A DNA stretch of 64,000 nucleotides from Thermoanaerobaculum sp. (GCA_021154885.1 JAJKHS010000091.1:9089-73088); one strand, 5' to 3'. Counted from the stretch's first letter, positions 7,971 through 59,300 are shown. Made by a program: numbers and translations. Notes: a model not told the origin generated them from the sequence alone.

Positions 7971-8423
7971 TTAGACGACGATCTTGGACGGGTCCGTGGC
8001 CTCCGGTGAGCCGGGGGTCACGATCGGCGACGCCGGAGTCACCCGCGGCTTCAGCGTCTCGATCTTGGCGTTCAGCTCCTCGACCCGCAGCGTCAGGTTG
8101 CGGATCTCGTCGCGGGTGGGCACGCCCAGGCGATTGAGGGCGGAGCTCAGCTTCTCGTCGAGCTTGTCACCCCAGTTCTCGAAGGCGGACTCGGCCTTGG
8201 CCTTGGCCTTGTCGACCTCGACCCGGACCTTCTCGTTCACCTTGTCCACCTCGACCTTGCCCTTGGCCTCCACGTCGCGGCCACGATCCACCAGCCGGCT
8301 GAAGAGCTTCGAGCCCTCCTCCTCGGCCGCGGCCAGGGCGCCGAGCCCGGCCAGCCAGATGCGGTGCACAGAATCCTTGAGCTCGTCCTGCACGTTCTTC
8401 TCGGTACCGGTCGTTGTTTCCAT
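7971..8423 (-). CDS. Phasin family protein (PHA granule-associated)
   Basis: RIWLAGLGALAAAEEEGSKLFSRLVDRG N-terminal motif and K/E-rich coiled C-terminus typical of TIGR01837-type phasins; sits next to phaR. Confidence 0.7.
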   Translation of the reverse strand: METTTGTEKNVQDELKDSVHRIWLAGLGALAAAEEEGSKLFSRLVDRGRDVEAKGKVEVDKVNEKVRVEVDKAKAKAESAFENWGDKLDEKLSSALNRLGVPTRDEIRNLTLRVEELNAKIETLKPRVTPASPIVTPGSPEATDPSKIVV

Positions 8424-10217: not shown

Positions 10218-11140
10218 GCGCCCTCCCCTTCCCCCACCCCCAGATGCCGCCGGGCTGACTCCCCGAAACAGCGGCTGAGGGCTGCGAGGAGGGCCGGTCC
10301 ACGATCGAGCGGGAGCTGTGGCAGCTCGATCCGCGGCCCCTGCCAGCCCGTCTTGAGCCGCGCCAGCTCCCGCTCGTTGAGCGCCCGCCGCCGGCGCCAG
10401 AGGGCGACCAGCTCGTTCTCCCGCTCGCCCGGGACCTGATGCGGCGCCGGCGGATACAGACCATTGACCACCAGCAGCTCGGGGTCGCGCTGCACCCGGT
10501 CGCGCAGCGCCTGGCGCAGCTCCAGCGCCTCTTCGACCGGCATCTCCTCGGCCTGGGTGACCACCACGATGCCGCACTTCTCCGCATCGCCGACTAGCGC
10601 CGCCAGCTCGGAGGACATGACAGAGAAGGGGCCGCTGGTGATCACCTCGGAAACGAGCCGCGGTGCGGCAAGGAGGCTCACGCCGTGACCCGTGGCCGGC
10701 GCGTCGAGGACGATCGTGTCCAGGTCCGGAGTCCCCGGCGCTCCCAGCCCCCGCAGCAGGCGCAGGGCGTGCCCCAGGGTGGCGAGCTCCTTCAAGCCCG
10801 GGGCGCCGGCCGCGAAGTGGTGGTAGACGGGGCTGTCGAGCACCCGCCGCGCCAGCAGCTCCAGCTTCAGGCGCTCGCGCACCACCTCGTCCAGCACTTG
10901 GCGGGGCTTGAGGTTCTGCACCCAGAGGCGAGACTCGGCCTGGACAATGGCGCCGCCCGAGGGGGGGACGCCGAGCATCTGGTGGACGTTCTCGCGAGGG
11001 TCGACCTCCACGACGAGGGTCCGCCGGCCCGCGGCGGCCAGCGACCTACCCAGCGTGGCCGCGATGGCCGTCTTGCCGACGCCGCCCTTGCCCGTGACCA
11101 CCACGAGCTGGCGGCGGGAAAGCTGTTCGATCGGGTTCAT
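10208..11140 (-). CDS. ArsA/GET3-family ATPase, half-size (split ArsA partner 1)
   Basis: P-loop VVVTGKGGVGKTAIAATLG, anion-transporting ATPase-like fold; translationally coupled to downstream paralog. Confidence 0.7.
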   Translation of the reverse strand: MNPIEQLSRRQLVVVTGKGGVGKTAIAATLGRSLAAAGRRTLVVEVDPRENVHQMLGVPPSGGAIVQAESRLWVQNLKPRQVLDEVVRERLKLELLARRVLDSPVYHHFAAGAPGLKELATLGHALRLLRGLGAPGTPDLDTIVLDAPATGHGVSLLAAPRLVSEVITSGPFSVMSSELAALVGDAEKCGIVVVTQAEEMPVEEALELRQALRDRVQRDPELLVVNGLYPPAPHQVPGERENELVALWRRRRALNERELARLKTGWQGPRIELPQLPLDRGPALLAALSRCFGESARRHLGVGEGEGAWS

Positions 11141-13368: not shown

Positions 13369-14656
<1,288 letters not shown>

Positions 14657-16149: not shown

Positions 16150-16365
16150 CCCGCCCCGAAGCCCTCACCCCTGTCCCCTCTCCCGCCCCTCCCACCCCCC
16201 TCACCGGGAGAGGGGAACCCGGTTGAAGCGGTCTTGCTGGTCTCCCCCTGTCCGTGTTTGTCCGTGCTTGTCCCTTCCGTCCTTGTTCTTTCTCCCTCTT
16301 CTCCCGGTGAGGGGGGTGGGAGGGAGCGGGAGAAGAGGGCCGGGGTGATGAGGGTCTTGGGGGAA
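16150..16365. repeat. Family-2 palindromic G/C-tract repeat element, copy 1
   Basis: CCCTCACCGGGAGAGGGG ... CCCTCTTCTCCCGGTGAGGGGGGTGGGAGGGAGCGGGAGAAGAGGGCCGGGGTGATGAGGGTCT; same core found at 32527, 35905 and 38018 in both orientations. Confidence 0.7.
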
Positions 16366-17508: not shown

Positions 17509-20151
17509 ATGGACATCAATAAACTGACGCAGAAATCCCAAGAGGCATTGCAGAGCGCTCAGACCAAAGCCCTGCGCTATGGCCACCAGGAGGTGGACGG
17601 CGAGCACCTGCTCCTAACTCTTTTGGAGCAGCCGGAGGGGCTGGTCCCCCGCCTGCTCGCCCGCATGGAGGTGCCCACCGAGGCCATGAAGGCCGAAGTC
17701 GAGCGTGAGCTCTCCCGCCGGCCCAAGGTCTCCGGACCGGGGGCCGAAGCGGGCAAGATCTATCTCACCCAGCGGCTGCAGCAGATCCTGGTGCGGGCCG
17801 AGGACGAGGCCAAGCGGCTGAAGGACGAGTACGTCTCCGTCGAGCACCTGCTGCTGGCAATGATCGAGGAGGCCTCCTCCTCGCCCGTGGGCCGCATCCT
17901 CGCCAGCTTCAATCTCACCCGTGACAAGTTCCTCGCCGTGCTGACGGCGGTGCGGGGCAACCAGCGGGTCACCAGCGCCATGCCGGAGGTCGCCTACGAG
18001 GCCCTGGAGAAATACGGCGTCGACCTCGTGGCCGAGGCGCGGCGCAACAGGCTCGATCCGGTCATCGGCCGCGACTCGGAGATCCGGCGGGTGATCCGCA
18101 TCCTGTCGCGCAAGACCAAGAACAACCCGGTGCTCATCGGCGAGCCCGGCGTGGGCAAGACGGCCATTGTCGAGGGCCTCGCCCAGCGCATCGTGCGCGG
18201 CGACGTGCCGGAGTGGCTGAAGGACCGCGCCCTCTTCTCGCTCGACATGGGGTCCCTCCTCGCCGGCGCCAAGTACCGCGGCGAGTTCGAGGAGCGTCTC
18301 AAGGCCGTGCTCAACGAGATCAAGCAGAGCGAGGGGCGCATCCTGCTCTTCATCGACGAGGTCCACACCATCGTCGGCGCCGGCAAGACCGAGGGCTCGC
18401 CCGACGCGGGCAACCTGCTGAAGCCCATGCTCGCCCGCGGCGAGCTGCACTGCATCGGCGCCACCACCCTCGACGAATACCGCAAGAACATCGAGAAGGA
18501 CGCGGCGCTCGAGCGGCGCTTCCAGCCGGTGATGGTCGATCCGCCGTCCGTCGAGGACACGGTCTCCATCCTCCGCGGCCTGCGCGAGCGCTTCGAAGTG
18601 CATCACGGCGTGCGTATCCAGGACAACGCCCTGGTGGCGGCGGCCGTGCTCTCCAACCGTTACATCTCCGACCGCTTCCTGCCGGACAAGGCCATCGACC
18701 TCATCGACGAGGCCTGCGCCATGATCCGCACCGAGATCGACTCGATGCCCCAGGAGCTCGACGAGGTCACCCGCCGGGTGATGCAGCTCGAAATCGAGGA
18801 GGCGGCGCTCAAAAAGGAGAAGGACAAGGCGAGCCGGGAGCGGCTGGAGGACCTCCGCCGCGAGCTGGCGGATCTCAAAGCCCAGGCCGACGCCATGCGC
18901 GCTCAGTGGGAAGCCGAGAAGCAGTCGATCGAGGAGGTGCGGGCCCTGCGCCAGCAGATCGAGCAGGCGCGCCTGGAGATCGAGGCCGCGGAACGGCAGT
19001 ACGACCTCAACAAGAGCGCCGAGCTGCGCTACGGCAAGCTCCCCCAGCTCGAGGCCCAGCTCCGGGAGAGGGAGGCGATGCTCGGGGAGAAGCAGAAGAG
19101 CGGCGGCAAGCTGCTGCGCGAGGAGGTCACGGATGAGGAGGTGGCCGAGATCGTCTCGCGCTGGACGGGCATTCCGGTCACCCGGCTGGTCGAAGGCGAG
19201 CGCGACAAGCTGCTGCGGCTCGACGAGATCCTCCACCAGCGCGTGGTGGGCCAGGACGAGGCCGTCCGTCTGGTGACCGACGCCGTCATCCGCGCCCGTT
19301 CGGGGATCAAGGACCCGCGGCGGCCCATCGGCTCTTTCATCTTCCTGGGGCCCACCGGCGTGGGCAAGACCGAGCTCGCCAAGACGCTCGCCCAGTCGCT
19401 CTTCGACAGCGAGGACAACATGGTCCGCATCGACATGAGCGAGTACATGGAGCGGCACACCGTATCGCGGCTGATCGGCGCGCCGCCGGGCTACGTCGGC
19501 TACGAGGAGGGGGGCCAGCTCACCGAGGCGGTGCGGCGCAAGCCCTACTCCGTCATCCTCTTCGACGAAATCGAAAAGGCGCACGGCGACGTCTTCAACG
19601 TGCTCCTCCAGATCCTCGACGACGGCCGGGTGACCGACTCGCAGGGGCGGACGGTGGACTTCAAGAACACCGTCATCATCATGACCTCGAACATCGGCTC
19701 CCACCACCTGCTGGAGGGGATGACGCCGGAGGGCGAGATCTCCGAGCGGGCGCGGGACGCCGTGATGCGTGAGCTGCGGAGCCACTTCCGGCCCGAGTTC
19801 TTGAACCGGGTGGACGACATCGTGCTCTTCCGAACGCTGACGCTGCCCGAGATCGAGCGCATCGTCGACCTGCAGACCGAGGACCTGAGGAAGCGCCTGG
19901 CGGACCGCGGCGTCCGTCTGGAGCTCTCGGAGCCGGCCCGGGTGCTGGTGGCCCGTCAGGGTTTCGACCCGGTCTACGGCGCCCGGCCGCTGAAGCGCTA
20001 CCTCCAGCACGAGTTGGAGTCGAAGATCGGCCGCGCCCTGATCGCCGGCGAGGTCCACGACGGAGCCCTCCTCCGCGTGGACGTCAAGGGCGGAGCGCTC
20101 GCCGTCGAGATCGAGAACCCCAAGGAGGCGGAGGTGGCGGTGGGGGTGTAA
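17509..20151 (+). CDS. clpB: ATP-dependent chaperone ClpB
   Basis: 880 aa, two AAA+ modules with Walker A GEPGVGKT and GPTGVGKT, middle coiled-coil domain, canonical N-terminus [18 protein letters not shown]. Confidence 0.9.
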
Positions 20152-20204
20152 GCTCCTGAAAGTGTCGGAAGAAGATTGAGCTGACCGATTCGAGCCAGCG
20201 AGAT

Positions 20205-20233
20205 CAGCGGCAAGCCGGCCGGGCTTTTTCTTT
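20205..20233 (+). terminator. Putative rho-independent terminator after clpB
   Basis: GC stem CAAGCCGGCCGGGCTT followed by TTTTTCTTTC. Confidence 0.45.
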
Positions 20234-20240
20234 CAGAAAC

Positions 20241-20491
20241 CTAATAAGCCTTGTCCCGCGGTAGCACCCGCAGGATGAGCAGAAGCGGACCGGCTGGATC
20301 TTTCTGAAAACGAACCCGCCAATCCCCTACCCGGAGCCGCCACTCTGGAGGGTGGAGGCCCTCCAATGGACATCTCCAGAACCCGTCGAGGCGAAGCGTT
20401 CGACCGCAGCCACTACACGCGCTCGGATCTGCGGGTCGAGCTTTCGCGTGTCTTTCAATGCACGAGGCGCCCAAACGATTTGCCAGCTCAT
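20241..20491 (-). pseudogene. relE: RelE/ParE-family toxin gene disrupted by frameshift
   Basis: ATG at 20491 overlaps antitoxin stop (ATGA). N-terminal frame MSWQIVWAPRALKDTRKLDPQIRARVVAAVERFASTGSGDVH stops at 20327. The C-terminal RelE signature PEWRLRVGDWRVRFQKDPAGPLLLILRVLPRDKAY lies in another frame and ends at 20241. Confidence 0.6.
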
Positions 20492-20778
20492 CCGAGGCCC
20501 AGCTCGCGCTTGACCTCTTCGTGCGAGATGCCTTTGGCCTCCCGAGCCTCACGTCGAGCTTCGGAGAGCCCGCCGTCGGCGTCGTCCGCGTCGCGTTCAT
20601 CGTCCAAGGGTGCCGTCAGCAGGGCCCGAAGCACCGGATCCGACGTGGCCCGCAGGCCCTCAAGGACTCGGGCAGCCACCGGGAGATCCTGCTCGGGCAA
20701 GTCATCGATCAGCCGGTGCAGTGCGTTTCTTCCGCCCATCGTCGCTTCCACCTCCTGTGCAGATAGTTGCCCCAGCAA
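20488..20778 (-). CDS. Putative type II antitoxin partnered with relE
   Basis: Small acidic protein ending ISHEEVKRELGLG, stop overlapping toxin start; true start may be internal Met (MGGRNALHRL). Confidence 0.45.
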   Translation of the reverse strand: MLGQLSAQEVEATMGGRNALHRLIDDLPEQDLPVAARVLEGLRATSDPVLRALLTAPLDDERDADDADGGLSEARREAREAKGISHEEVKRELGLG

Positions 20779-20929
20779 AGGAGCCCCTGACGATCTAGGA
20801 TATCAGACGGAACGCCGGTCCTCTCCGCGAACGGAGCGCCGATACGATGACGTTGGTGTCGAGGACGGCTCCCCAAGGAGGCGGAGGTGGAAGTGGGGGT
20901 GTGAGATCTACCCGGCTCTCCTGAAACCG

Positions 20930-20960
20930 GCAAGCCCGGCCGCGAGGCCGGGCTTTTTTC
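20930..20960 (+). terminator. Terminator hairpin in duplicated clpB 3-prime remnant
   Basis: AAGCCCGGCC-GCGA-GGCCGGGCTT followed by TTTTTC; preceded by a duplicate of the last 9 clpB codons. Confidence 0.45.
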
Positions 20961-21044
20961 TTGGAATCCGACCCGCAGCCTGTAATTGGCGGCGGGCTGC
21001 CATCACTGAATCAGGTGAACGCGCCACCAGAAAGGAGAAAGCGT

Positions 21045-21449
21045 ATGGCCAACATAGAAGGTGAATGGGAAATCCACTCGCGAGCAAAGAAGCCGACGAG
21101 CAACGGCAGACCCAACCGGATCTATTCCGCAAAGACTTGGACGATCAGCCAGAACGGCCGAGGTTGGGAGGCACTCTGGTGGTTTCAGGACGAAGAAGAC
21201 TCACTGCTGAACGAGCTCCCAGGTTCGGACGGTGGATCTTTCATCTTCCACAATGGATACAAGGATTGCACGGTCAGAGCCTGGCTGATCACCAATAGCC
21301 TCATGGTCGGCATCGCGACGAAGTACGAAGCGACCGACGAGAGACACTGCAAGGACGGACCCGTCTCAGACGATGACATCGACGTCTTCGTGGCGATGAG
21401 AAAAGGCCCCGCCGACTATACGGAGGCCACCGCTCGACCGGACCGTTGA
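21045..21449 (+). CDS. Hypothetical protein (134 aa)
   Basis: AAGGAG SD 8 nt upstream of ATG; no recognisable domain; GC visibly lower than flanks. Confidence 0.45.
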   Translation: MANIEGEWEIHSRAKKPTSNGRPNRIYSAKTWTISQNGRGWEALWWFQDEEDSLLNELPGSDGGSFIFHNGYKDCTVRAWLITNSLMVGIATKYEATDERHCKDGPVSDDDIDVFVAMRKGPADYTEATARPDR

Positions 21450-21709
21450 ATCCGAGGGGCTTGGCTACTCTTGCCTGGGAATCCGCAGCAGGTTATAGTC
21501 TGTACGAAAGCGACGAGATTCCATGAGGCCGCCAAGCCCCCGCATGGCGCCACCCTGTTCCATGTGAGGGAGGTGTCGTCACGCGCAACACGATCCTCTT
21601 CGTCCTGCCTCTCACCCTGGCCGGCGGAGCTCAGCCAGGCGGCCCGACCGCTTCGCTCGTCCTGAGCGCGGGCGACTACGTCCAGCTTCGGGCGGAGCAG
21701 GACGTCGAC

Positions 21710-24700
21710 GTGACGGTGAGCGTCCGGGACCCTGCGGGATTTCTGGTGACCGAGGTCGACGCCCTCACTGGACGTATCGAGCCAGAGGTCGTCCGCTTCG
21801 TCGCGGAAGCCCCCGGGATCTACAACATCGCGGTCCGTGCCCTGGAGAGTTTCCCCGGGGCACCACAGCCGAGTCTGGAGATCGACGAGATCCGTCGTGC
21901 GACCTTCCAGGATCGCTGGGTGGCAGCGGAGGAAGCGTCCCTGGCGCGGCTCGACAAGGGCTTCTCCGACCAGGACCCGGACGCTCTGCAGGCGGCGCTC
22001 CCAGCCTACCAAGGAGCTCTGGAGCGGGCTCGCCGGCTTGGAGACCTCCCCCGGCAAGCGGGGCTGGTCTACCGTCTCGGCGTGACTCACAACCGCCGGG
22101 GAGAGGTCGCGGCGGCACGGGACGACTTTGCGGCGGCCCTCGATCTTTACCGCCGGGCCGGCAATCCCAAAGGGATCGCAGCCACCCTCAATCAGCTCGG
22201 ACGCGTGGAGCGGCGCCTGGGAGACGTCGCGGCGGCGGTCCGGGATCTTACAGAGTCGCTGCGCCTGTGGCAGGGCCTGGGTGCGGAAGGCGAAGCGGCC
22301 GACGTCGGCAACAACCTGGGGTTTCTCGAGCAGTCGACGGGACGCTACGACGAAGCTCTGGAGGCCTATGACCGAGCCCTGCAGATCTACCGCAAGCGGC
22401 AGAACCTCGCGCGCCAGGCTTCCGTTCTGAACAATATCGGGGGCATCTATGACGGCCGCGGCGAGCCGGAGCAGTCTCTCCTCTACTACCGGGAGGCCCT
22501 GCCCCTCAGCCGGTCGCTGAAGAACCGGAGCCTGGAATCCGAGTTGCTGAACAACTTCGGCGCCGCCTACGTCCGCCAGGGGAAGCTCCAGGAGGCGCTT
22601 GACTCTTATGTCTCTGCGCTCGAGCTGATGCGCAGCCTCAAAGCCGAGAACCGGGAATCCCAGGTACTGACCAACCTGGCGGACCTGTTCATCCGGCTCG
22701 GTTCCCCCGAAAAGGCCCGGGAGCTTTTCGCCCGGGCGCTGGCTCTCCAGAAAAAGAGCCCCGACCGCCAGAGCGAAGCCGCGATCCTCGGCAACCTCGG
22801 CAGGGTCTCGACGCTCCTTGGCCAGTTCGCCGAAGCAGAGGACTTTCTCAATCAGGCCCTGGAGCTGGCGATCCGCACCGGGGATCGGTCGAGCCAGACC
22901 CTGACCCTGGTGCAGAAGGCTGAGCTCCTCGGCGCCCTGTCGCGACCGGACGAGGCGCGGGTCTCTCTGCATCAAGGCTTGAGCCTCGCCCGCCAGCTCG
23001 GCGATCACGCCGCGGAGCTCGTGGCCCTCGGCGCCCTGGGCCGCTTCGAGGCAGCCCGCGGCGAAACCGAGCCGGCGCGCCGGGACCTGGAGGCGGCGCG
23101 GCGGCTGGCCCAGGAGCTGGGCATCGTCGGGGAAGAGGCGAAGGCGCATCAGGAGCTGGCGCGGCTGGAACGGTCCCAGGGGCACCTGGACGCCGCCCGC
23201 GGTCATGTCGAGACGGCGCTAGCGCGTTTCGAGTCGCTGCGCTCGGACGTCGCGGGGGATCAGTCGCGGACCTCCCTCTTCGCCACCCAGCGCGAAGCCT
23301 ATGACCTCGACGTGGACATTCTCGAACAGCTCCATCTCGATACCCAGGCCTTCGAGGCCGCCGAGCGGGCACGGGCGCGCGGTCTGCTCGACTTCCTCGG
23401 CCAGGCGCAAGTGGACGTGCGGGAGGGCGATCCCCAACTCCTCGCCGAGGAGGGTCGTCTGCGCGCGGAGATCAACGCCAAAGCCGCCCTCCGTGCCGAG
23501 CTGCTGCGCAAATCGGACGGCGCCGCGCAGGCAGGGGCCCTCACACGGGAGCTGACGGCCCTCTCCGCCGAGCACCAGATCGCCGAGGCCCGCCTGCAGG
23601 CGCGCAGCGCCCGCTATGCCCGGCTCACCCAACCCGACACGCGGCTCTCCGAGCTCCAGGCCACGCTCGACGGGAACACCGTCGTCCTCGAATACTTCCT
23701 CGGCGAGCCCCACAGCTACCTCTGGAAAGTCTCCGCGAGCTCCTTCGCCAGCTTCGAGCTTCCCGGCCGGGAACGGATCGAGTCGCTGGCGCGGCGCGTC
23801 CACGAGCAGCTCGGCAGTCTCGGCACCCGAGAGGGTGCGCGAAATCGACAGGACCTCGAAGAGCTCAGCAGGACCCTCCTAGGGCCGGTGCTCGATGGGC
23901 TGCAGAGCGAGCGCCTGGCCATCGTGGCGGACGGCGCTCTCCTCTACGTCCCGTTCGCGGCCCTGCTTATCCCGGCCGAGGATGCCGCGCGCACCCAGGT
24001 GCCCTTGGTGGTCGCTCACGAGGTGGTCCATCTCCCATCGGCGGCCGTGCTGCGGGAGATCCGCCGCGCCCGGCAGGAGAAGCCCCGGCCGGCGGGAGCG
24101 GTGGCCGTCCTGGCGGACCCGGTATTCGGGAAGGACGATCCCCGGGCGCATCAGGCGATGGCCAAGACCCCACCGGCCCACCCCACGGGAGAAGGCCTGG
24201 CGGACCTCCTCGGCCCTCTCCGGCAGTCCCAAGCCGGCGATGGGTACTCCCGCCTGACCTGGAGCGGCCGTGAAGCCGAGCTCGTGGCCGCCGCGGCCCG
24301 GGGGAGGGATGTCCTCATCGCGCGAGGCTTCCAGGCCAGCCGGGAGCTCGCCATCTCGCCGGACCTCGGCCGGTTCCGCATCCTCCACTTCGCCACTCAT
24401 GGCTTTCTGGATGCCCAGCACCCGGAGCTCTCCGGCCTGGTCTTCTCGCAGCTCGATCCCCAGGGCCGCTCCCGCGACGGCTTCCTGCGCCTCCAGGACG
24501 TCTACCATCTCCATCTCAACGCCGACCTCGTCGTCCTCTCCGGCTGCGAGACGGCGCTGGGCAAGAATCTCCGCGGCGAGGGTATCGTGGGGCTCACCCA
24601 CGGCTTCTTCCACGCCGGCGCCTCCCAGGTCCTGGCGAGCCTCTGGCCGGTGCGCGACCGGGCCACGGCCGAGCTGATGCAGCGCTTCTACCACGGCCTG

Positions 24701-24877
24701 TTCCACGATGGCCTCCCCGCCTCCGCCGCTCTGCGCCAGGCCCAGATCTCCCTGTGGAAAGAGCGGACCTGGCGCGATCCCTACTTCTGGGCCGCCTTCA
24801 TCCTCCAGGGCGACTGGCAGGCCGGAGAGCGATGGACGAAAGCTCAGGGCGCGATGTCGAAACCGGTGCCCCCCTGA
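21710..24877 (+). CDS. TPR-repeat protein with C-terminal CHAT (caspase-like) domain
   Basis: Many TPR units (AGNPKGIAATLNQLGRVERRLGD, YDEALEAYDRALQIYRK ...) then CHAT with His HFATHGF and Cys LSGCETALG dyad. GTG start; upstream in-frame signal-peptide-like segment ILFVLPLTLAGGAQ without a clear start codon. Confidence 0.7.
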   Translation: MTVSVRDPAGFLVTEVDALTGRIEPEVVRFVAEAPGIYNIAVRALESFPGAPQPSLEIDEIRRATFQDRWVAAEEASLARLDKGFSDQDPDALQAALPAYQGALERARRLGDLPRQAGLVYRLGVTHNRRGEVAAARDDFAAALDLYRRAGNPKGIAATLNQLGRVERRLGDVAAAVRDLTESLRLWQGLGAEGEAADVGNNLGFLEQSTGRYDEALEAYDRALQIYRKRQNLARQASVLNNIGGIYDGRGEPEQSLLYYREALPLSRSLKNRSLESELLNNFGAAYVRQGKLQEALDSYVSALELMRSLKAENRESQVLTNLADLFIRLGSPEKARELFARALALQKKSPDRQSEAAILGNLGRVSTLLGQFAEAEDFLNQALELAIRTGDRSSQTLTLVQKAELLGALSRPDEARVSLHQGLSLARQLGDHAAELVALGALGRFEAARGETEPARRDLEAARRLAQELGIVGEEAKAHQELARLERSQGHLDAARGHVETALARFESLRSDVAGDQSRTSLFATQREAYDLDVDILEQLHLDTQAFEAAERARARGLLDFLGQAQVDVREGDPQLLAEEGRLRAEINAKAALRAELLRKSDGAAQAGALTRELTALSAEHQIAEARLQARSARYARLTQPDTRLSELQATLDGNTVVLEYFLGEPHSYLWKVSASSFASFELPGRERIESLARRVHEQLGSLGTREGARNRQDLEELSRTLLGPVLDGLQSERLAIVADGALLYVPFAALLIPAEDAARTQVPLVVAHEVVHLPSAAVLREIRRARQEKPRPAGAVAVLADPVFGKDDPRAHQAMAKTPPAHPTGEGLADLLGPLRQSQAGDGYSRLTWSGREAELVAAAARGRDVLIARGFQASRELAISPDLGRFRILHFATHGFLDAQHPELSGLVFSQLDPQGRSRDGFLRLQDVYHLHLNADLVVLSGCETALGKNLRGEGIVGLTHGFFHAGASQVLASLWPVRDRATAELMQRFYHGLFHDGLPASAALRQAQISLWKERTWRDPYFWAAFILQGDWQAGERWTKAQGAMSKPVPP

Positions 24878-25143
24878 GGGAGCGTGCGATTGAACTGGCG
24901 CTTCACCCCCCGATACGTGATGGTCACGTTGTAAGAGCCGGCGGGAAGATCCTGCAGGTAGTACGAGCCATCGTCAGCGGTGACGGCCCGCTGCTTGCTG
25001 GACCCGGAGCTGAAATCGATCAGGGCGTGGGGGACCGGAGCTCTGTTCCCCTGGAACAACACCTTCCCACTGATGGGTGCCGCCACGACATGGGCTGCCG
25101 CAAAGATCAACAGGGCAACGGCCAAGGCGAATATGCGTTTCAT
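24844..25143 (-). CDS. Small secreted protein with carboxypeptidase-regulatory-like beta-sandwich motif
   Basis: Signal peptide MKRIFALAVALLIFAAAHVVAAP; TADDGSYYLQDLPAGSYNVTI resembles CarboxypepD_reg/Cna-B folds. Confidence 0.5.
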   Translation of the reverse strand: MKRIFALAVALLIFAAAHVVAAPISGKVLFQGNRAPVPHALIDFSSGSSKQRAVTADDGSYYLQDLPAGSYNVTITYRGVKRQFNRTLPQGGTGFDIAP

Positions 25144-25168
25144 GATGGGTCTCCTAGATCGTCCATTG

Positions 25169-25687
25169 TCAAGGGCTCGCCGGCGCCACCTGTAACTGCT
25201 GGCTCCTGCGGATACCGGTTTTGGTGTCTGTAACCCGTAGCTCATAGACTCCCGCCGGGATGGGTCGGTAGTAAGCGAACCGGTTGCCTTCCGGCATGAG
25301 AGTGAAGACCGCGTCTCGCGGGATCAGCTCGAGACTCAGACTCTGGCTGCCGAAATCGACCCCCGGAACGTTCTGCACGTCGATGACGCGGGATCCCAGT
25401 GGGCCGGGATGAAGCTTGTCCGGGGCGGTCGTGACCAGTAACAGCTCCTTCGCTTCGCTGTAGGTCTTGGCAGGATTGACGAAGAAGAACACGAGCAGCG
25501 TGAAACCCCAGATGGCGCTCGCGCCCCCCAATTTCACCGCCATGCTGCTCATACCCGGAGCCTGACCGCTCAACTGGGACGCCCCCTTGTTCCAGAAGAG
25601 CATGGCCGCCAGGAAAGCCGCAATCGTAGCGAACACCCACCACCCCGCACAGAACAAGAGGAGATGGTCGAGATTTGAGTCCGGCAT
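25169..25687 (-). CDS. Hypothetical membrane-anchored protein
   Basis: Two predicted TM segments (LLLFCAGWWVFATIAAFLAAMLF; IWGFTLLVFFFV) then soluble domain; upstream in the same operon as 24844..25143. Confidence 0.5.
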   Translation of the reverse strand: MPDSNLDHLLLFCAGWWVFATIAAFLAAMLFWNKGASQLSGQAPGMSSMAVKLGGASAIWGFTLLVFFFVNPAKTYSEAKELLLVTTAPDKLHPGPLGSRVIDVQNVPGVDFGSQSLSLELIPRDAVFTLMPEGNRFAYYRPIPAGVYELRVTDTKTGIRRSQQLQVAPASP

Positions 25688-25835
25688 CTTGTACCTACCT
25701 TTCCATGGAGCTTCCAGCAGGGAAGCTCAGCAAGGTAGGCGCCCGGCTTCTCTGTTTGTTACAGCGTTGCTAAGAGATATGACGTCGAGCAGCTTGGGGA
25801 GCAACTCTTCTCCGTCCCGGTGCTACGATGCACCC

Positions 25836-26306
25836 ATGGAGCCGCTCGACAAGGACATCGTCCGAGCCACAGAGAGCGTTCCCGGGATCTCCGTCCTGGT
25901 GCTCTTCGGCTCCCGGGCGCGAGGGACCCATCGACCGGACAGCGACCTCGACGTGGCGGTCTTGCCGCAGAGCCCGGATTCCCGAGCCCGCCGGCATCTC
26001 CAAACGGACGTTGCCGTGGCCCTCGCCGATCTGGCTCCCGAGGGCCGAGTCGACGTCGTCCTCCTCGACGAGGCCGACGCCGTGCTGCGGCAGCGGATCA
26101 TGGAGACCGGCCGGGTCCTGCTCAACCGGGACGACGAAACCTGGAAAGAGCTGCGGGTCCGTACCATGCGGGAATACGGTGACGGGGAGTGGGCGCGACG
26201 GCTCTACCGCGAAGCCCAGCGCCGACGACTGGAACGAGGTGAGCCAAGTGGTCGATCGGGAAAAGCTCTCGAGTCGCTTAGACGCGTTGGAAAGCTACCT
26301 CGCTGA
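25836..26306 (+). CDS. Nucleotidyltransferase (MNT-type antitoxin-like)
   Basis: GSRARGTHRPDSDLDVAVL minimal nucleotidyltransferase motif (GS-x9-DxD). Confidence 0.65.
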   Translation: MEPLDKDIVRATESVPGISVLVLFGSRARGTHRPDSDLDVAVLPQSPDSRARRHLQTDVAVALADLAPEGRVDVVLLDEADAVLRQRIMETGRVLLNRDDETWKELRVRTMREYGDGEWARRLYREAQRRRLERGEPSGRSGKALESLRRVGKLPR

Positions 26307-26349
26307 GCTGCGGACCTTCCGCGGCACCACCCGCGGGCACCAAACCTGA
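26248..26349 (+). pseudogene. HepT (DUF86) toxin N-terminal remnant, truncated after about 33 codons
   Basis: GTG start overlapping MNT 3-prime end; VVDREKLSSRLDALESYLAELRTFRGTT resembles the HepT N-terminus; premature stop at 26349, no Rx4HxY motif. Confidence 0.4.
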
Positions 26350-26519
26350 CCCTGCAGTCCTCCAAGCCGGCCGATATTTCCCGCGTCTACGCGGAGAGCG
26401 CCCTCTCTGCTTCCCAGGCTGCCCCAGAGCCATCTCCCTCGTCACCTCTAAACACTGAAGGCGACGTCTGTGTCTTCACCACATGGACACGGCGAGAGAA
26501 CGAATCCAACCAGGACACC

Positions 26520-28106
26520 ATGCACGAACGAATCCAGACCTTCGAAGAGCTCGCCCTCCGACTGCGGCCCGACGGGGCCGGCGCCTACGTCGTCCAGGTC
26601 GTCCATTCGCCCTACGGCTGCCGCGACGTCCGATTCGATCTCAAGGATCTCGGATTTCCCTTCGACAGCCTTCGTCGGATCGACTTCTCAGCTTCGGAGT
26701 CCCGTGAGTTGGGAGAGGTCGAGCCTCCTCAGGGCGGGGGCTCGGCGACTCCGGAGACTCTGGGTGGAACGCTGTTTCGGGCTCTCTTCCGGGACGATCT
26801 CCTCTCGACCTTCCTGATGAGCCTGGGCCGTATCCAAGGAAGAAAGGACCTCGGTCTGCGAATCCGGCTGATCTTCGATCCTCTCGATCCCGCCAGCCGG
26901 CAGCTTCTCTCCCTTCCCTGGGAGCTTCTCTACCGCCCCGATACCCGAGATTTCCTGGCGAGGAGCCGGTTCACGCCCGTGGTCCGTTATCTGGAGGTTC
27001 CCCGGCTGACCACCCCGCTGGAGCTGACATCCCAACTGCGTATCCTCGTCGTCCTAGCAAACCCAGCAGGAACGGCGGGCCTCGATCTCGAACGAGAATG
27101 CCAGCAGATGGAGAGCGTTCTCCGAGAGAATCCCCGCATTCGTCTGGAGGTCCTCAGGAGCCCATCGCTCCCCGAAATTCGTTCGGCCCTTCAGAGATTC
27201 GAAGCTCACGTCTTCCACTACATGGGCCACGGCGGCTTCGACTCAAAGTCAGGGGAAGGCTCTCTGCTCTTCGAGGATTCGCAGCGCAGGCCGCAGCCGG
27301 TCGGAGCCGGCGTGCTGGCCGAGGCTCTCAAGAACCTGCCGAGCCTGCGGCTCGTCTTTCTCAACGCCTGCCGCACGGCCCAGGTTTCCGAAGATCCGAA
27401 ATTGGACCCCTTCAGCGGCTCGGCATCGGCCCTCTCTCTGGCGGGTGTACCGGCGATCCTTGCCATGCAACTTCCGATTTCAGACCGCGCCGCTCTGATG
27501 TTCAGCCAGCGGCTCTACGAAATGCTGGCCCAGGCTTTTCCAGTGGATGCCGCGGTCGCGGAGGCGCGGCTGGCCGTCCATCTCGATGCTCCGTCGTCGT
27601 ACGAATGGGCCACGCCGGCCCTTTACATGAGCGTGCCTGACGGTTGCCTCTTTGCTCCGGCTCCCCCCGGCGATGAAGAGGACCATTTCGCCCTCGGTTT
27701 GAGCTATCTGGACCAGGGCCTCTACGACCTCTCGGCTGCCGCCTTTCAGCGCGTTCTGGGCAAAACGACTCACGAGGAGGATCTTCTCTACTACCTCGCG
27801 CTCGCACTCATCGGGGGACAGCGACCAAGGGCCTTGAAGCTCGCCACCATCCGGCAAATCGAGACTTATCTGGCAGCCGCCATCCGCCTGAATGATCGGA
27901 AGTCTCACTACAAGCTCCTTCTCGCAGCGGCCAAGTACGACTACTATGCGAGCAACGGGCTTCGCATCCCTTCACCCCCAGTCGATCAACTCCTGAAAGA
28001 AGCTGCAAATGGAGAGATCGACCCGAAGGAAGTGCGCCTCATGCTTCGACATGCTCCCCTTCCCCCGGGAGACCTCCTCAGCGTCGTCCAGAATTTTTGC
28101 CATTGA
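26520..28106 (+). CDS. CHAT domain protein with C-terminal TPR-like region
   Basis: His HVFHYMGHGGF and Cys VFLNACRTA dyad region typical of CHAT; C-terminal LGLSYLDQGLYDLSAAAFQRVL TPR-like. Confidence 0.65.
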   Translation: MHERIQTFEELALRLRPDGAGAYVVQVVHSPYGCRDVRFDLKDLGFPFDSLRRIDFSASESRELGEVEPPQGGGSATPETLGGTLFRALFRDDLLSTFLMSLGRIQGRKDLGLRIRLIFDPLDPASRQLLSLPWELLYRPDTRDFLARSRFTPVVRYLEVPRLTTPLELTSQLRILVVLANPAGTAGLDLERECQQMESVLRENPRIRLEVLRSPSLPEIRSALQRFEAHVFHYMGHGGFDSKSGEGSLLFEDSQRRPQPVGAGVLAEALKNLPSLRLVFLNACRTAQVSEDPKLDPFSGSASALSLAGVPAILAMQLPISDRAALMFSQRLYEMLAQAFPVDAAVAEARLAVHLDAPSSYEWATPALYMSVPDGCLFAPAPPGDEEDHFALGLSYLDQGLYDLSAAAFQRVLGKTTHEEDLLYYLALALIGGQRPRALKLATIRQIETYLAAAIRLNDRKSHYKLLLAAAKYDYYASNGLRIPSPPVDQLLKEAANGEIDPKEVRLMLRHAPLPPGDLLSVVQNFCH

Positions 28107-28119
28107 AAGGAGAACTATC

Positions 28120-28959
28120 ATGGACAAGAGGCCCAAGCAGAACGACAGAGAGATTGCACTACGAAAGTATTTTGAAGTCGTGACTCGGGAGCGAACTACG
28201 ATTCTGATCGTGATGATCGCAGCAGGAATCGTCTTCGCCCTAGTCGGTTTAGCTTTGCTCTCCTCTCCGGACGGCGCCGCAATGGCCTGGTTCTGCATTG
28301 TTACCGGCTCGGGGATAGCGGCTGTAGGAGGTCTTCGACTGGGTTCCATCGAGGCTCGTTATCGAAGTGCCCTTGCGGCTACCCAACCGCAGCCGTCCGA
28401 CAGTCAGGTTGATGCGTGGTTTCAAGATAGCCGGCAACACCTCATCCTCCATGCCAAGAACCGGCTCAACCTGTTCGGGGCTGAGAGCGATTTTTTCAAG
28501 CCCCTGATCATTGAAGTTCCGACCCTCAGCGCGACCTATGGGGTTCCCACGGAGGACCTGAAGTGGCGCAAGGGAAGTGACGGCACCTTTCGGTTTGCCA
28601 TTCACCACCTCATAGTCATTTATCTGACCGAGCGTCACCTCGCCGCATTCACCTGCGATTTCAATTTCATCCGCGACGTTTCGCTAAACGAGACCACCCG
28701 TGAGTATCACTACCTGGACATCGTTTCCGTGGCTACCTATGAGTACTCCCAAGCGTTCACCCTTCCCACAGGAGAAAAACTCTCAACCTCTCAAACCTTC
28801 CGACTGTCGGTTGGGAGCGGAGAGTACATCGAGGTGAAGTTGGAGAACGACCAACTGCGCAAGATGACCCAGCAGGAAGAGGTCCCCACCTTTGAGGCGG
28901 ATCAGGCCGTGACGACGATCCGCGCCATGCTGAGGGACCGGAAGGCGTTGGCTGCCTAG
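28120..28959 (+). CDS. Hypothetical membrane protein (279 aa), low-GC
   Basis: AAGGAG SD; two N-terminal TM helices (ILIVMIAAGIVFALVGLALL; WFCIVTGSGIAAVGGL); GC about 50% against about 67% background. Confidence 0.5.
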   Translation: MDKRPKQNDREIALRKYFEVVTRERTTILIVMIAAGIVFALVGLALLSSPDGAAMAWFCIVTGSGIAAVGGLRLGSIEARYRSALAATQPQPSDSQVDAWFQDSRQHLILHAKNRLNLFGAESDFFKPLIIEVPTLSATYGVPTEDLKWRKGSDGTFRFAIHHLIVIYLTERHLAAFTCDFNFIRDVSLNETTREYHYLDIVSVATYEYSQAFTLPTGEKLSTSQTFRLSVGSGEYIEVKLENDQLRKMTQQEEVPTFEADQAVTTIRAMLRDRKALAA

Positions 28960-29120: not shown

Positions 29121-29777
29121 ATGGCTTCCGACCTGCGCCTCGACAACCTCCCTGCCACCGTCCACCTGTTCGTGGTGAACCGCTTCATCCTCCTGCCGGA
29201 GACGACGCTGCCGCTGACGCTCACGGACGAGCGGTACAGCGGCCTGGTGGAGTCGCTGGCGGCCAGGGAGGGCTATCTCGGGTTCATCCTGTCCCAGGAT
29301 TCCAAGGAGGGCCGGCGCTTTCAGGAGGTGGGGTGCCTGGGCCGCATCCGGGAGATGGAGCGGGATGCCTACGGTCTCAACGTCGTCTTCGAGGGCGTGA
29401 TCCGCTTCCGCGTCCGGCGAGAGGTGCCCAAGGCAGGCAAGGACGACTTCCCGCGCGCCGAGGTCGGGTACGAGGAATTCGCCGCGGACCTGGAGGACGG
29501 GGAGGAGGATCTCGAAGGGTGGGACCTCGAGCGGATCAAGGCCACCCTCATCCAGATCGGACGCAAGGCGACACCTGAGGGCTGGTCGTCGCTGGAGGCG
29601 ATGCCGCCGCGCAAGATCCTCCGCCTGATGGCGCAGACCATGCCGTTCGCTCCCGCCGAGAAGCAGGCCCTGCTCGAAACACCCACCTTCCGCGCCCTCC
29701 TGGAGCTGCTCTTCGCGCTCCTCGCCGTGAATTTCCTCACCACCACGCCGGACGACTCGCAGGCGCAGGTCAATTGA
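29121..29777 (+). CDS. LON N-terminal (substrate-binding) domain protein
   Basis: LPATVHLFVVNRFILLPETTLPLTLTDERY matches Lon N-domain consensus (LPLFPL..VLFPG..LPLHIFEPRY). Confidence 0.6.
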   Translation: MASDLRLDNLPATVHLFVVNRFILLPETTLPLTLTDERYSGLVESLAAREGYLGFILSQDSKEGRRFQEVGCLGRIREMERDAYGLNVVFEGVIRFRVRREVPKAGKDDFPRAEVGYEEFAADLEDGEEDLEGWDLERIKATLIQIGRKATPEGWSSLEAMPPRKILRLMAQTMPFAPAEKQALLETPTFRALLELLFALLAVNFLTTTPDDSQAQVN

Positions 29778-32526: not shown

Positions 32527-32712
32527 GCCCCCACCCAAGACCCTCATCACCCCGGCCCTCTTCTCCCGCTCCCTCCCACCCCCCTCACCGGGAGAAGAGG
32601 GAGACCAGCAAGAGCGCTTCAACCGGGTTCCCCTCTCCCGGTGAGGGGGTTGGGAGGGGGCGGGAGAGGGGACAGGGGGGGACAGGGGTGAGGGCTTCGG
32701 GGCGGGGGCGTT
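32527..32712. repeat. Family-2 palindromic repeat element, copy 2 (inverted relative to copy 1)
   Basis: CCCTCTTCTCCCGCTCCCTCCCACCCCCCTCACCGGGAGAAGAGGGAGACCAGCAAGAGCGCTTCAACCGGGTTCCCCTCTCCCGGTGAGGGGG. Confidence 0.7.
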
Positions 32713-35772: not shown

Positions 35773-35904
35773 GGGTCTGCTCCTATTTCCCCGCTGGGCG
35801 AGTGCGAGGGAGAGAGTAGCGCGTTTCAAGAAAAAACGGAGTAAGTGGCCGGCGAGACGCCGGCGGTCCCAGGGGTCTTGCTTCTGCTGGTTTCAGACTA
35901 ACCA

Positions 35905-35975
35905 CTCCCTCTTCTCCCGGCGGTCGGGGGGGAGGCTGGGAGAAGAGGGCCGGGGTGATGAGGGCTTCGGAGGGC
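35905..35975. repeat. Family-2 repeat, partial copy 3
   Basis: CCCTCTTCTCCCGGCGGTCGGGGGGGAGGCTGGGAGAAGAGGGCCGGGGTGATGAGGGCTTCGG. Confidence 0.55.
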
Positions 35976-38017: not shown

Positions 38018-38188
38018 CCCCGAAGCCCTCACCCCCTGCCCCCTCTCCCGCCCCCTCCCAACCCCCCTCACCGGGAGAGGGGGTCCCGGCTGAGGCGTTC
38101 CTGCCTTTCTCCCTCTTCTCCCGGGGAGGGGGGTGTGAGGGGGCGGGAGAAGAGGGCCGGGGTGATGAGGGTCTCTCACTTCGCCCCC
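38018..38188. repeat. Family-2 palindromic repeat element, copy 4
   Basis: CCCGAAGCCCTCACCCCCTGCCCCCTCTCCCGCCCCCTCCCAACCCCCCTCACCGGGAGAGGGGG ... CCCTCTTCTCCCGGGGAGGGGGGTGTGAGGGGGCGGGAGAAGAGGGCCGGGGTGATGAGGGTCT. Confidence 0.7.
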
Positions 38189-58699: not shown

Positions 58700-59300
58700 T
58701 ATCGTCGGGTCACCTCTGCCGATTTCGTCGGGTCACCTCTGCCGGAGGGGTTCCTTTCAGGCCCGAAGGGCCGGCGGCATGTAGCCTGGGGCTGGCGCTT
58801 TTTGCCAGCCCCAGGAAACGCAACCCATACAAACCCAAAGCCCTGAAAGGGCGACGGCAGCTCATCATTTGAAGCAAACTGCCGCCGCCCCTCCGGGGCT
58901 TGGGGGTAATTTGGGGCTCTGTTCCTGGGGCTTGCGCCCCAGGCTACATGCCGCCGGCCCTTCGGGCCTGATGACTCATGAGACACCCTCTGAGTCTCAT
59001 GCCTCAATCCCCCGAAGGGTCCCGCCCTCTTTGTGACCTTCTTTCGAAGGAGGGAATGTTCCATGCGTAGCAAGGTCTCAATCCCCCGAAGGGTCTCCAC
59101 GAGAGTGAAGTCCATCAGTTGTCAAAGACCAGGTTCAATTCCACCGCATCCGGCGGTCGGGTTCTACCCACGTCCAACAGGAGCTCGGCTCCGGTGCGGG
59201 CGGAGTCGTCCTTCACGACCGAGGACGGACCCGCTGGCGCCAGTCCCGATCTGCGCCTGTGCTAGACTGCTTCTCAGCCTAAATCCCTAACCTGGGTCCT
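58700..59300. repeat. Structured non-coding spacer: tandem 20-mer, 35-bp perfect inverted repeats flanking 145 bp, repeated CTCAATCCCCCGAAGGGTC boxes
   Basis: TCGTCGGGTCACCTCTGCCG at 58703 and 58726; CAGGCCCGAAGGGCCGGCGGCATGTAGCCTGGGGC at 58759 and its exact reverse complement at 58935; box at 59003 and 59076. Confidence 0.6.

Follow-up and report, generated by a model that had tools for sequence, protein, structure and literature searches.

Homology-facilitated illegitimate recombination (HFIR) has been proposed for displaced 3′ ends and orphan immunity genes that lie beyond conserved genes in the T6SS clusters of Vibrio cholerae and in Rhs loci (Kirchberger et al., 2017; PMC5361080), a process described by de Vries and Wackernagel (2002), Prudhomme et al. 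(2002) and Meier and Wackernagel (2003), as cited in that paper. In such displacement ("orphan") arrays of T6SS, Rhs and CDI loci, a conserved upstream gene serves as the homologous anchor, the incoming DNA carries a new module together with the 3′ end of that gene, and the old 3′ end and module move downstream, where they decay; no integrase is involved, and related strains hold alternative modules. The locus described here, part of a 64-kb stretch of DNA that was analysed as a whole (the window), would be alike in all these respects under the reading favoured here. Unlike them, its anchor is the housekeeping chaperone gene clpB and not a toxin or delivery gene, its modules are type II toxin-antitoxin (TA) and CHAT-TPR genes and not effector-immunity pairs, and it holds a single displaced tail, for which either polarity is possible.

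Integrative elements that enter the 3′ ends of tRNA, tmRNA or protein genes by means of tyrosine integrases, regenerating the gene end and leaving an attL/attR duplication, also present direct repeats including the 3′ end, an intact gene and unoccupied relatives, as found at this locus. In contrast to these elements, no integrase was found among the island genes and 30 other large ORFs of the window, its cargo is a decayed TA of 0.75 kb, the inner boundary is a broken gene instead of an att arm, the TA lies beside clpB without repeats in other genomes, and viral, phage and plasmid searches gave no extrachromosomal or phage copy. Defence and TA hotspots without integrases are also known between core genes, where they are exchanged by flanking homologous recombination, a concept from pan-genome studies. 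The island in the window resembles them in its fixed core flanks (clpB and the LON_substr_bdg gene) and its variable content, dominated by TA and putative defence genes, although clean flanking recombination leaves no duplicate and the window records an imprecise event. Finally, chromosomal integron cassette arrays and CALINs with TA cassettes likewise array small TA modules between hairpin-forming repeats, but the window hairpin is, by eye, a plain intrinsic terminator with a perfect stem and a T-run and without attC architecture, and no intI integrase was found among the large ORFs examined in the 64-kb window.

The 3′ end of clpB occurs twice

The repeat and its surroundings comprise the following features:

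17509–20151, plus strand: clpB, intact, 880 aa (ORF call; Pfam Clp_N/AAA/ClpB_D2-small on the identical protein)
20118–20155, plus strand: r1, repeat copy 1, the functional clpB terminus (last 10 codons, TAA stop and 4 nt beyond)
20153–20161, plus strand: spacer motif CTCCTGAAA, copy 1, lacking the 12 nt that copy 2 and the relatives have after the stop
20208–20240: degraded convergent terminator of clpB and ParE, with a 5-bp stem left and the ancestral junction CTTTCAGAAACC abutting the ParE stop
20871–20908, plus strand: r2, repeat copy 2, a displaced, non-functional clpB terminus (PKEAEVEVGV, TGA stop)
20906–20961, plus strand: native-type spacer and intrinsic terminator, complete (12 nt and CTCCTGAAAC) and strong (10-bp stem, GCGA loop, T-run)

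In pairwise comparison, r1 and r2 are identical at 34 of 38 positions, lie 753 nt apart and have a longest exact common run of 20 nt. The 32-mer core of the repeat contains two mismatches, and a second match to it appeared in none of 100 dinucleotide shuffles. Copy 2 carries a GCG>GAA codon change, which is its one amino acid difference, and TGA for TAA as the stop; its EVEVGV tail variant also occurs in genuine ClpB orthologues (P0017 and P0036). The likeness extends through the spacer and the terminator, the copies being set apart by three indels: 12 additional nt after the stop in copy 2, about 47 additional nt between CTCCTGAAA and the hairpin in copy 1, and 9 nt of the hairpin gone from copy 1. 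On the copy 2 side CTCCTGAAA recurs at 20918–20926, and both hairpins have in common CGGCAAGCC (20208–20216 and 20928–20936) and GGCCGGGCTTTTT (20217–20229 and 20946–20958). A Logan assembly contig (L002; run SRR9952762, 1034 nt) is identical to the window across both copies, the ParE frameshift described below and the joint, so the arrangement is not one assembler's quirk. The duplicated clpB tail, reproduced by this independent assembly, is real and not a product of chance, and it marks an insertion or recombination junction.

The first-pass annotation had described a duplication of the last nine codons and the stop (20118–20152), recurring about 750 bp further on from 20868. The duplication and its recurrence stand, with the length corrected to ten codons and the second copy placed at 20871. 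The similarity takes in the ten coding codons and the stop position as well as the terminator hairpin, and both the single amino acid change and the cleaner terminator ascribed to copy 2 are borne out. Indeed, the copy-2 hairpin folds at −24.3 kcal/mol (z −2.6 against shuffles), as opposed to −8.7 kcal/mol for the copy-1 remnant, whose shuffles fold equally well. As a consequence, clpB would lack a good terminator until 20932–20955, and its transcript therefore probably reads antisense through the decayed TA. In the interval 20000–21100, Rfam gave no match and a promoter scan found no promoter.

Genes and gene fragments between the copies

Between the two clpB ends, and up to the joint, we found:

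20160–20210 (about), minus strand: fragment of a DUF3368 (PIN-like toxin) gene, codons about 9–25 (PLISLARIGQLNLLPTL), between spacer and hairpin
20241–20491, minus strand: pseudogene of a ParE/RelE-family toxin, with PF05016 matches on both halves
20488–20739, minus strand: putative antitoxin, 83 aa, its stop overlapping the ParE start by 4 nt
20740–20776, minus strand: antitoxin 5′ leader, about 20–30 nt common to L171 and L177, then 17 nt without assigned origin
20777–20870, minus strand: 5′ fragment of a PIN_3 toxin gene, codons about 6–36 (AVLDTNVIVSALRSRRGPAFRLIS, an internal stop, then IVRGSF)
20870/20871: illegitimate joint, PIN_3 codon about 6 fused to clpB codon 870 (by comparison with the intact PIN_3 of L171 and with clpB)

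The antitoxin gene and the frameshifted relE that had first been annotated between the copies are thus present, together with the DUF3368 and PIN_3 fragments, and are not the only content. Compared with intact orthologues, the ParE pseudogene has a 4-nt deletion between 20367 and 20368 that shifts the frame and is also present in L002. Intact 84-aa orthologues annotated with PF05016 occur in the relatives L168, L174 and L177, and L175 holds an uninterrupted homologous sequence. In the window, PF05016 matches the N-terminal half with E = 0.045 and the C-terminal half with E = 9e-5, at 23.4 bits against a cutoff of 23; the ParE_toxin domain is that of a type II TA, the window copy being a pseudogene. 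The antitoxin falls into no Pfam family, with HTH matches at sub-threshold level only. In all the contexts retrieved, members of its 45-member family lie directly upstream of ParE or of what is left of a truncated ParE.

The DUF3368 fragment shows 91% nucleotide identity to positions 8503–8549 of L083 and 83% to positions 8980–9027 of L086, both within annotated DUF3368 genes, and was also detected by tblastn; it looks like filler or a templated insertion. Its presence in the copy-1 spacer would require an event separate from the recombination proposed below, which speaks against that proposal.

The PIN_3 fragment has lost its first five codons or so and its promoter. Over 31 residues, its amino acid identity to PIN_3 of L171 and L178 is 77%; at the nucleotide level, the homology extends over 88 nt and begins at codon about 6, at the joint. 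Judged from this comparison, the inner edge of r2 reads as a break within a toxin gene and not as an att-type boundary. The microhomology at the joint is a single common C (1 nt), below the 3–10 nt that are typical of experimental HFIR joints, which speaks against HFIR here.

Versions of the island in related genomes

The clpB orthologues of Thermoanaerobaculia are 85–97% identical, and in these relatives the interval between clpB and the LON-domain gene is a variable island of TA and CHAT-TPR genes. Its contents (ParE/antitoxin, PIN_3, DUF3368/UPF0175, MNT/HepT, CHAT-TPR and TIR-TPR) vary highly among relatives at 88–97%. In L175/L176 (ClpB 88%) the island consists of the TA only: a single clpB end is followed by the terminator, ParE and the antitoxin, with the TA convergent on clpB and the terminator in common. 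Decayed or displaced forms of this layout are present in L083 and L177. The junction of the copy-1 terminator with the ParE stop in the window (GGGCTTTTTCTTTCAGAAACC directly followed by TAATAAG, within 20208–20240) is homologous to that of L175/L176, L083 and L177.

The closest relative, L084 (ClpB 97%), has the order terminator, hypothetical gene, CHAT-TPR, MNT, HepT after clpB, as the window does after copy 2. The empty site that the first-pass annotation had proposed looking for is therefore found, since in both L084/L085 and L086/L087 clpB leads directly to the terminator and then to downstream genes of the kind seen in the window. Taken together with its spacer, its terminator and the flank that follows, copy 2 aligns collinearly with the one clpB end and terminator of L083, L084 and L086, at 79–85% identity over about 95 nt. 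The spacer reads CTCCTGAAA in both window copies, as opposed to CCCTGAATA in L084/L086 and CCCTAGAAT in L175, which suggests that the two parents were very closely related. Neither parental haplotype with a CTCCTGAAA-type spacer was recovered among the relatives, and the event is therefore reconstructed from more distant ones (ClpB 88–97%).

Other relatives record further rearrangements. ParE has suffered independent deletions in L083 and L171, and L083 holds a UPF0175 stub. The PIN_3 5′ end and a homologous CHAT module are neighbours in L171, about 290 nt apart, and PIN_3 adjoins LON in L178. L178 has the clpB terminator twice, the second time as an exact copy of 24 nt, bracketing its cargo. 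The module thus occurs twice around a block in at least two haplotypes (the window and L178), a hint of a reusable insertion point, and the L178 copy hints at more frequent reuse of the terminator than random illegitimate recombination predicts, which counts against an HFIR scar. L177, with two terminator-like hairpins, may be a third haplotype with a doubled module.

A second case of a duplicated clpB coding end was not found among the twelve contigs looked up. Searches with the C-terminal 299 aa of ClpB against genome contigs and with the last 60 aa against metagenome contigs gave 76–82% as the best among the matches listed, with no close relatives. The stretch 7991–8095 of L083 (GAGATCT...CTTCCTGAAAC...hairpin) was considered as a decayed second clpB end and rejected: comparison with L177 identified it as a UPF0175 5′ fragment and an unrelated hairpin, and a control stretch of the genome reached the score of its hairpin match. 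Similarly, the resemblance of the 110-nt stretch between the hairpins of L177 to a degenerate clpB tail (GGGTGTAAG, GAGCTGGCGGTGG) was not significant against shuffles. Sliding-window identity and the last 105 nt of clpB gave a fine mosaic only, with one patch of 35 nt that matches L083 exactly amid sequence otherwise like that of L084, and no clean crossover point within the gene.

From copy 2 to the LON gene

Downstream of the joint, the island continues as follows:

20871–26335, plus strand: L084-type block (clpB tail, terminator, 134-aa hypothetical gene, CHAT-TPR, two minus-strand genes, MNT, HepT stub)
21710–24877: CHAT-TPR, within the L084-type block
25836–26303: MNT, within the L084-type block
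26287–26335: HepT cut to 16 codons, right end of the L084-type block
26421–28959, plus strand: second cargo module (CHAT of 528 aa and an x236-like gene), homologous to modules of L171 and L178
29121–29777: LON_substr_bdg core gene, after the second cargo module

The L084-type block is syntenic with L084/L168/L174 and has truncated genes at both ends. Its homology ends sharply at 26335, with 36 of 36 nt identical up to that position. A clean split insertion was rejected: PIN_3 codons 1–5 and the promoter are absent to the right of the HepT stub, and homology to L171 resumes about 85 nt further on, at 26421.

Origin of the duplicate

The clpB-tail duplicate is probably the scar left by the stacking of two versions of the variable island through HFIR, rather than an attachment site used by a mobile TA cassette. 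The modules found between the core genes clpB and LON_substr_bdg in this Thermoanaerobaculia lineage would be interchangeable, clpB being the conserved homologous anchor. An alpha version (clpB, terminator, then ParE, antitoxin and PIN_3 on the opposite strand) and a beta version (clpB, terminator, hypothetical gene, CHAT-TPR, MNT, HepT) would have co-existed in very close relatives until one HFIR event stacked them, with one end of the incoming DNA exchanged by ordinary homologous recombination and the other joined without homology, PIN_3 codon about 6 to clpB codon 870. In the polarity that we slightly favour, alpha DNA would have been anchored inside clpB and have brought a clpB tail, the terminator remnant, ParE, the antitoxin and the PIN_3 stub, so that the resident tail of clpB, with its terminator and the CHAT-TPR block, came to lie 753 bp further downstream. 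The mirror event, in which the beta block would have arrived to the right of the resident TA and used DNA downstream as its anchor, is nearly as good a fit. Mechanism and polarity are inferred; what the comparisons show is an anchor gene intact to 20151 with its own displaced 3′ end downstream (20871–20908), a far-end joint with 1 nt of microhomology at which PIN_3 is truncated and fused to clpB, and both arrangements in relatives (alpha in L175/L176, decayed or displaced in L083 and L177; beta in L084/L168/L174). The island also contains other debris of illegitimate junctions, namely DUF3368 codons 9–25, HepT cut at codon 16 and the 4-nt deletion in ParE.

The proposal of the first-pass annotation, a TA cassette integrating itself at the clpB 3′ end and regenerating it, is not supported by these comparisons, which show a PIN_3 break at the r2 edge, no integrase among the ORFs examined, and the TA without a duplicate in L175/L176. 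Its structural picture would hold if the TA-bearing 753 bp were the incoming piece, for which the chances are about even, with new DNA bringing a clpB tail of its own and displacing the old one downstream; even then, the route would be homologous recombination on one side and illegitimate joining on the other, from a sister haplotype, in place of site-specific integration. Stated in full, that proposal, in which the TA is a minimal non-autonomous cassette inserted by a site-specific recombinase acting in trans, with a clpB-tail mimic regenerating the gene and the copies standing as attL/attR, has very little probability. It is in keeping with imperfect direct repeats that take in the 3′ end of the target gene and leave clpB intact, with the empty site in relatives, and with the second exact clpB terminator hairpin around other cargo in L178. 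However, where a recombination core would lie, at the inner boundary of r2, there is the PIN_3 gene broken at codon about 6, and integrase, recombinase or transposase domains were found neither in the island genes nor in another 30 large ORFs from the 64 kb, the check for an integrase being negative at this scope. In L175/L176, and as decayed remains in L083, the TA also adjoins clpB with no duplicate; neither the clpB tail nor the antitoxin matched phage, plasmid or viral contigs; and the antitoxin family is small, seemingly lineage-restricted (few named matches, contexts fetched) and located in this island in each context retrieved. The same element with the same boundaries, or a free form bearing attP, was not found in the twelve contigs or the viral, phage and plasmid searches, and no title or abstract listed by a literature search describes integration at the clpB 3′ end. 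It is also very unlikely that the clpB tail and terminator form a dedicated, reusable insertion point at which integrase-less cassettes (TA, CHAT-TPR, MNT/HepT) are swapped through a recombination activity that is directed by hairpins or terminators and has its gene elsewhere.

The truncated genes and sharp ends of homology on both sides of 20871–26335 are what would be expected if a linear fragment of about 5.46 kb had been captured at a double-strand break by two illegitimate, NHEJ-type joints. A copy from a beta chromosome, from clpB codon 870 to HepT codon 16, would then have been ligated between the PIN_3 5′ end and the 528-aa CHAT gene of a resident alpha island, with about 200–300 nt lost; L171, with its PIN_3 5′ end and CHAT module about 290 nt apart, looks like the expected recipient, and the roughly 85 unassignable nt at 26336–26420 could be filler. 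This is nevertheless unlikely, as a single event would have to supply two non-homologous joints, the adjacency in L171 is weak evidence because PIN_3 neighbours other modules in other genomes (LON in L178), and the closest relative by core genes has beta at clpB, which suggests beta as the resident version. Direct repeats that flank the insert in just the way a single crossover would produce, the empty site in relatives, and the pop-out of the segment that the same repeats would permit agree with a Campbell-type integration by RecA. A sister cell or chromosome would have given rise, by illegitimate circularisation, to a circle of 753 bp with the clpB tail, spacer, ParE, antitoxin and PIN_3 stub, and a single homologous crossover in the approximately 38–100 nt of clpB tail and terminator homology would have integrated it. 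This is a quite improbable route, given two rare steps: circularisation on 1 nt of microhomology and a crossover on very short, interrupted homology (longest exact run 20 nt). A chimeric contig, in which the islands of two strains were merged through the clpB tail, might be suspected in a metagenome-assembled genome (GCA_019509815.1) from a lineage whose island haplotypes clearly differ between related strains. Such an artefact is extremely unlikely: the longest exact match is below usual assembler k-mers, a chimera via the repeat would not yield the joint of PIN_3 stub and clpB tail, and the independent contig L002 runs from copy 1 through the TA and the joint to copy 2 at 100% identity. Tandem duplication followed by deletion was rejected because a random deletion would not recreate the ancestral junction of terminator and ParE.

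Implications

The clpB-tail duplicate brings to light no new type of mobile element, and it cautions that a gene-end duplication need not be an att site. RecA could loop out the 753 bp between r1 and r2, and loss of the unit is predicted. Stacking by HFIR, as favoured here, would make this locus a base-resolved case of an integrase-free variable island being remodelled beside a housekeeping gene, with a displaced tail and truncated toxin genes left behind, and would extend the displacement-array pattern of T6SS and Rhs loci to TA and defence islands in an uncultured acidobacterial class.

Duplication of the clpB 3′ end

The last 10 codons of clpB with their stop (copy 1, 20118-20155) are repeated 753 nt further on, at 20871-20908 (copy 2), with 34 of 38 positions identical; the 32-nt core of the repeat has two mismatches, and a second match was found in 0 of 100 dinucleotide shuffles. 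Copy 2 reads PKEAEVEVGV with a TGA stop, and the stop of copy 1 is TAA. Both copies are followed by CTCCTGAAA (20153-20161 and 20918-20926) and, downstream, by pieces of one hairpin (CGGCAAGCC...GGCCGGGCTTTTT). Indels separate the two: 12 additional nt lie behind the stop of copy 2, and in copy 1 about 47 additional nt stand ahead of the hairpin, whose stem has lost 9 nt. With a 10-bp stem and a folding energy of -24.3 kcal/mol (z = -2.6), the copy-2 hairpin forms a strong terminator; the remnant in copy 1 shows no greater stability than shuffled sequence. An assembly chimera is an unlikely alternative explanation of this arrangement; a Logan contig of 1034 nt (run SRR9952762) includes both copies and is identical to the window, and therefore the structure is not an artefact of one assembler. 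The duplicated clpB tail and cleaner second terminator described in the first-pass annotation are thus confirmed, except that the repeat had been given as nine codons.

Two genes lie between the copies:

20241-20491, minus strand, ParE/RelE-family toxin gene (PF05016)
20488-20739, minus strand, putative antitoxin, 83 aa

Compared with intact orthologues, the toxin gene lacks 4 nt. The antitoxin has no Pfam family; it belongs to a small family (45 clusters), and all contexts fetched correspond to the same island, the variable stretch between clpB and the LON_substr_bdg gene (29121-29777 in the window). The antitoxin is intact in the window (20488-20739), L083 (7745-7996) and L171 (1915-2166), but loss of the partner ParE took three separate forms: the 4-nt frameshift in the window and differing deletions in the other two.

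The island in related genomes

The window was assigned to contig JAEKLO010000018.1 of the metagenome-assembled genome GCA_019509815.1. Many ClpB orthologues are found at 85-97% identity, labelled Thermoanaerobaculia or Acidobacteriota. Their clade-typical tail ends in V or A, and the EVEVGV variant is present in some members. All comparative evidence comes from twelve contig look-ups by exact protein match, and the content between clpB and LON differs in every relative.

Table. Gene order of the island in contigs of related genomes (percentages, ClpB identity to the window).
L084, L168, L174 (97%): clpB, terminator, hypothetical gene (247 aa), CHAT-TPR, MNT, HepT; opposite-strand ParE and antitoxin; LON
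L086: clpB, terminator, MNT, HepT; opposite-strand DUF3368 and UPF0175; LON
L083: clpB, terminator; opposite-strand mostly deleted ParE, antitoxin, DUF3368, UPF0175; LON
L178: clpB, terminator, CHAT, x236, MNT, second terminator copy; opposite-strand HicB-like gene and PIN_3; LON
L175, L176 (88%): clpB, terminator; opposite-strand ParE and antitoxin; no further island genes
L171, L177: cargo genes, terminator; opposite-strand ParE (deleted in L171), antitoxin, UPF0175; LON

In L178 (95% ClpB identity), the exact 24-nt clpB terminator hairpin (CCCGGCCGCGAGGCCGGGCTTTTT) occurs twice (10673-10696 and 14215-14238), flanking the cargo CHAT596-x236-MNT with the second copy at its distal edge; this hairpin is otherwise single-copy in the 64-kb window and the other loci examined. 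The island of L083 contains a further small duplication (8005-8095): a UPF0175 5′ fragment of about 45 nt lies directly upstream of the antitoxin, and the complete UPF0175 gene is also present at a distance of 600 nt.

Counterparts of the two copies

Copy 2, its 12-nt spacer, CTCCTGAAAC, the hairpin and the right flank are collinear with the sole clpB end of L084, L086 and L083 (79-85% over about 95 nt); beyond the clpB end, the gene types of L084 resemble those of the window. The copy-1 hairpin remnant and the ParE-stop junction (GGGCTTTTTCTTTCAGAAACC adjoining TAATAAG) have their homologous counterpart where clpB, terminator and ParE meet in L175/L176, L083 and L177. Each junction of a clpB end with its neighbour therefore matches a single-copy junction in relatives, showing that both are native and that the window holds them in tandem. 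Since CTCCTGAAA is common to both copies, where L084 and L086 have CCCTGAATA and L175 has CCCTAGAAT, the parental versions came from very close relatives.

At a finer scale, the clpB 3′ end (20047-20151) is a mosaic, in which a 35-nt patch (~20080-20114) is identical to L083, with 6 mismatches to L084, and both sides are nearer to L084. G+C is 0.55-0.60 over 20900-21500 versus ~0.68 in the flanks, across a 134-aa hypothetical gene (21045-21449) located after copy 2 and having no Pfam match and no nucleotide match among the relatives.

The joint and gene debris

Immediately left of copy 2, ~90 nt on the minus strand (20777-20870) translate to AVLDTNVIVSALRSRRGPAFRLIS*IVRGSF, which represents a PIN_3 toxin gene from codon ~6 to codon ~36 (77% amino-acid identity over 31 residues to the intact PIN_3 of L171 and L178; nucleotide homology over 88 nt). 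The switch from PIN_3 to clpB homology falls between 20870 and 20871, with one C in common; this is an illegitimate joint and not an att core. In copy 1, the 47 additional nt represent part of a DUF3368 toxin gene (codons 9-25; 91% to L083). The antitoxin and frameshifted relE, previously taken as the only cassette content, are indeed there, accompanied by PIN_3 and DUF3368 fragments.

The L084-like block ends, on its far side, in a HepT gene truncated after 16 codons (26287-26335), which leaves MNT (25836-26303) an orphan. Homology to L084/L168/L174 is 36/36 nt up to 26335 and then stops sharply; similarity resumes at 26421, now to the region upstream of the CHAT module adjoining PIN_3 in L171. 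Together with the independent ParE deletions in L083 and L171 and the UPF0175 stub in L083, this accumulation of joint and truncated genes shows that the island evolves via repeated imprecise joins.

Other elements in the window

An intergenic repeat family of ~65-105 nt (16186-16290, 32594-32659, 35892-35964 and 38052-38118) was revealed by cross-matches with the spacer upstream of dnaJ in L084 (3734-3836) and L086 (3776-3850); it has no Rfam match and may be a REP/MITE-like element. Two Acido-Lenti-1 sRNA matches (RF01687) score 39.5 and 47.7 bits, above the gathering threshold of 37, and are oppositely oriented ~100 nt apart, at 58759-58815 (minus strand) and 58924-58969 (plus strand).

Origin of the tandem arrangement

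Site-specific integration of a mobile toxin-antitoxin cassette, as initially proposed, is not supported. A search of the island genes and another 30 large ORFs of the 64 kb detected no domain of an integrase, recombinase or transposase, and the joint is a broken PIN_3 gene. Phage and plasmid collections contain no match to the 866-nt region, the antitoxin and a degenerate clpB-tail pattern are absent from the viral contigs searched, and the clpB coding-end duplicate was not found in any other sampled genome; in L175/L176, the toxin-antitoxin pair adjoins clpB without a duplicate of the clpB end. The earlier interpretation holds insofar as the region is the scar of an insertion that left a gene tail displaced.

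The arrangement is most simply explained by a single homology-facilitated illegitimate recombination (HFIR) event between an alpha haplotype, with the toxin-antitoxin pair adjoining clpB, and a beta haplotype, with the CHAT-TPR block adjoining clpB. One end would have recombined through homology, and the other would have been joined at PIN_3 codon ~6 and clpB codon 870. NHEJ-type capture of the 5.46-kb block and Campbell-type integration of a 753-bp circle are less likely alternatives to this single event, and the second terminator copy of L178 leaves a small door open beyond it.

Regarding polarity, we slightly favour the arrival of alpha DNA anchored in clpB, because the genome closest by core genes has the beta arrangement at clpB, clpB far surpasses any other anchor, and known arrays share this polarity. 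The mirror event is almost equally probable, with hints from the PIN_3/CHAT adjacency in L171 and the truncated genes at both block ends. If alpha DNA arrived, the structural picture of the first-pass annotation would be correct, the DNA bearing the toxin-antitoxin pair having brought its own clpB tail. It has been suggested that HFIR gave rise to the displaced 3′ ends and the orphan immunity genes seen in T6SS and Rhs arrays (PMC5361080), and the scar in the window would be a fresh instance of this already known kind of event.
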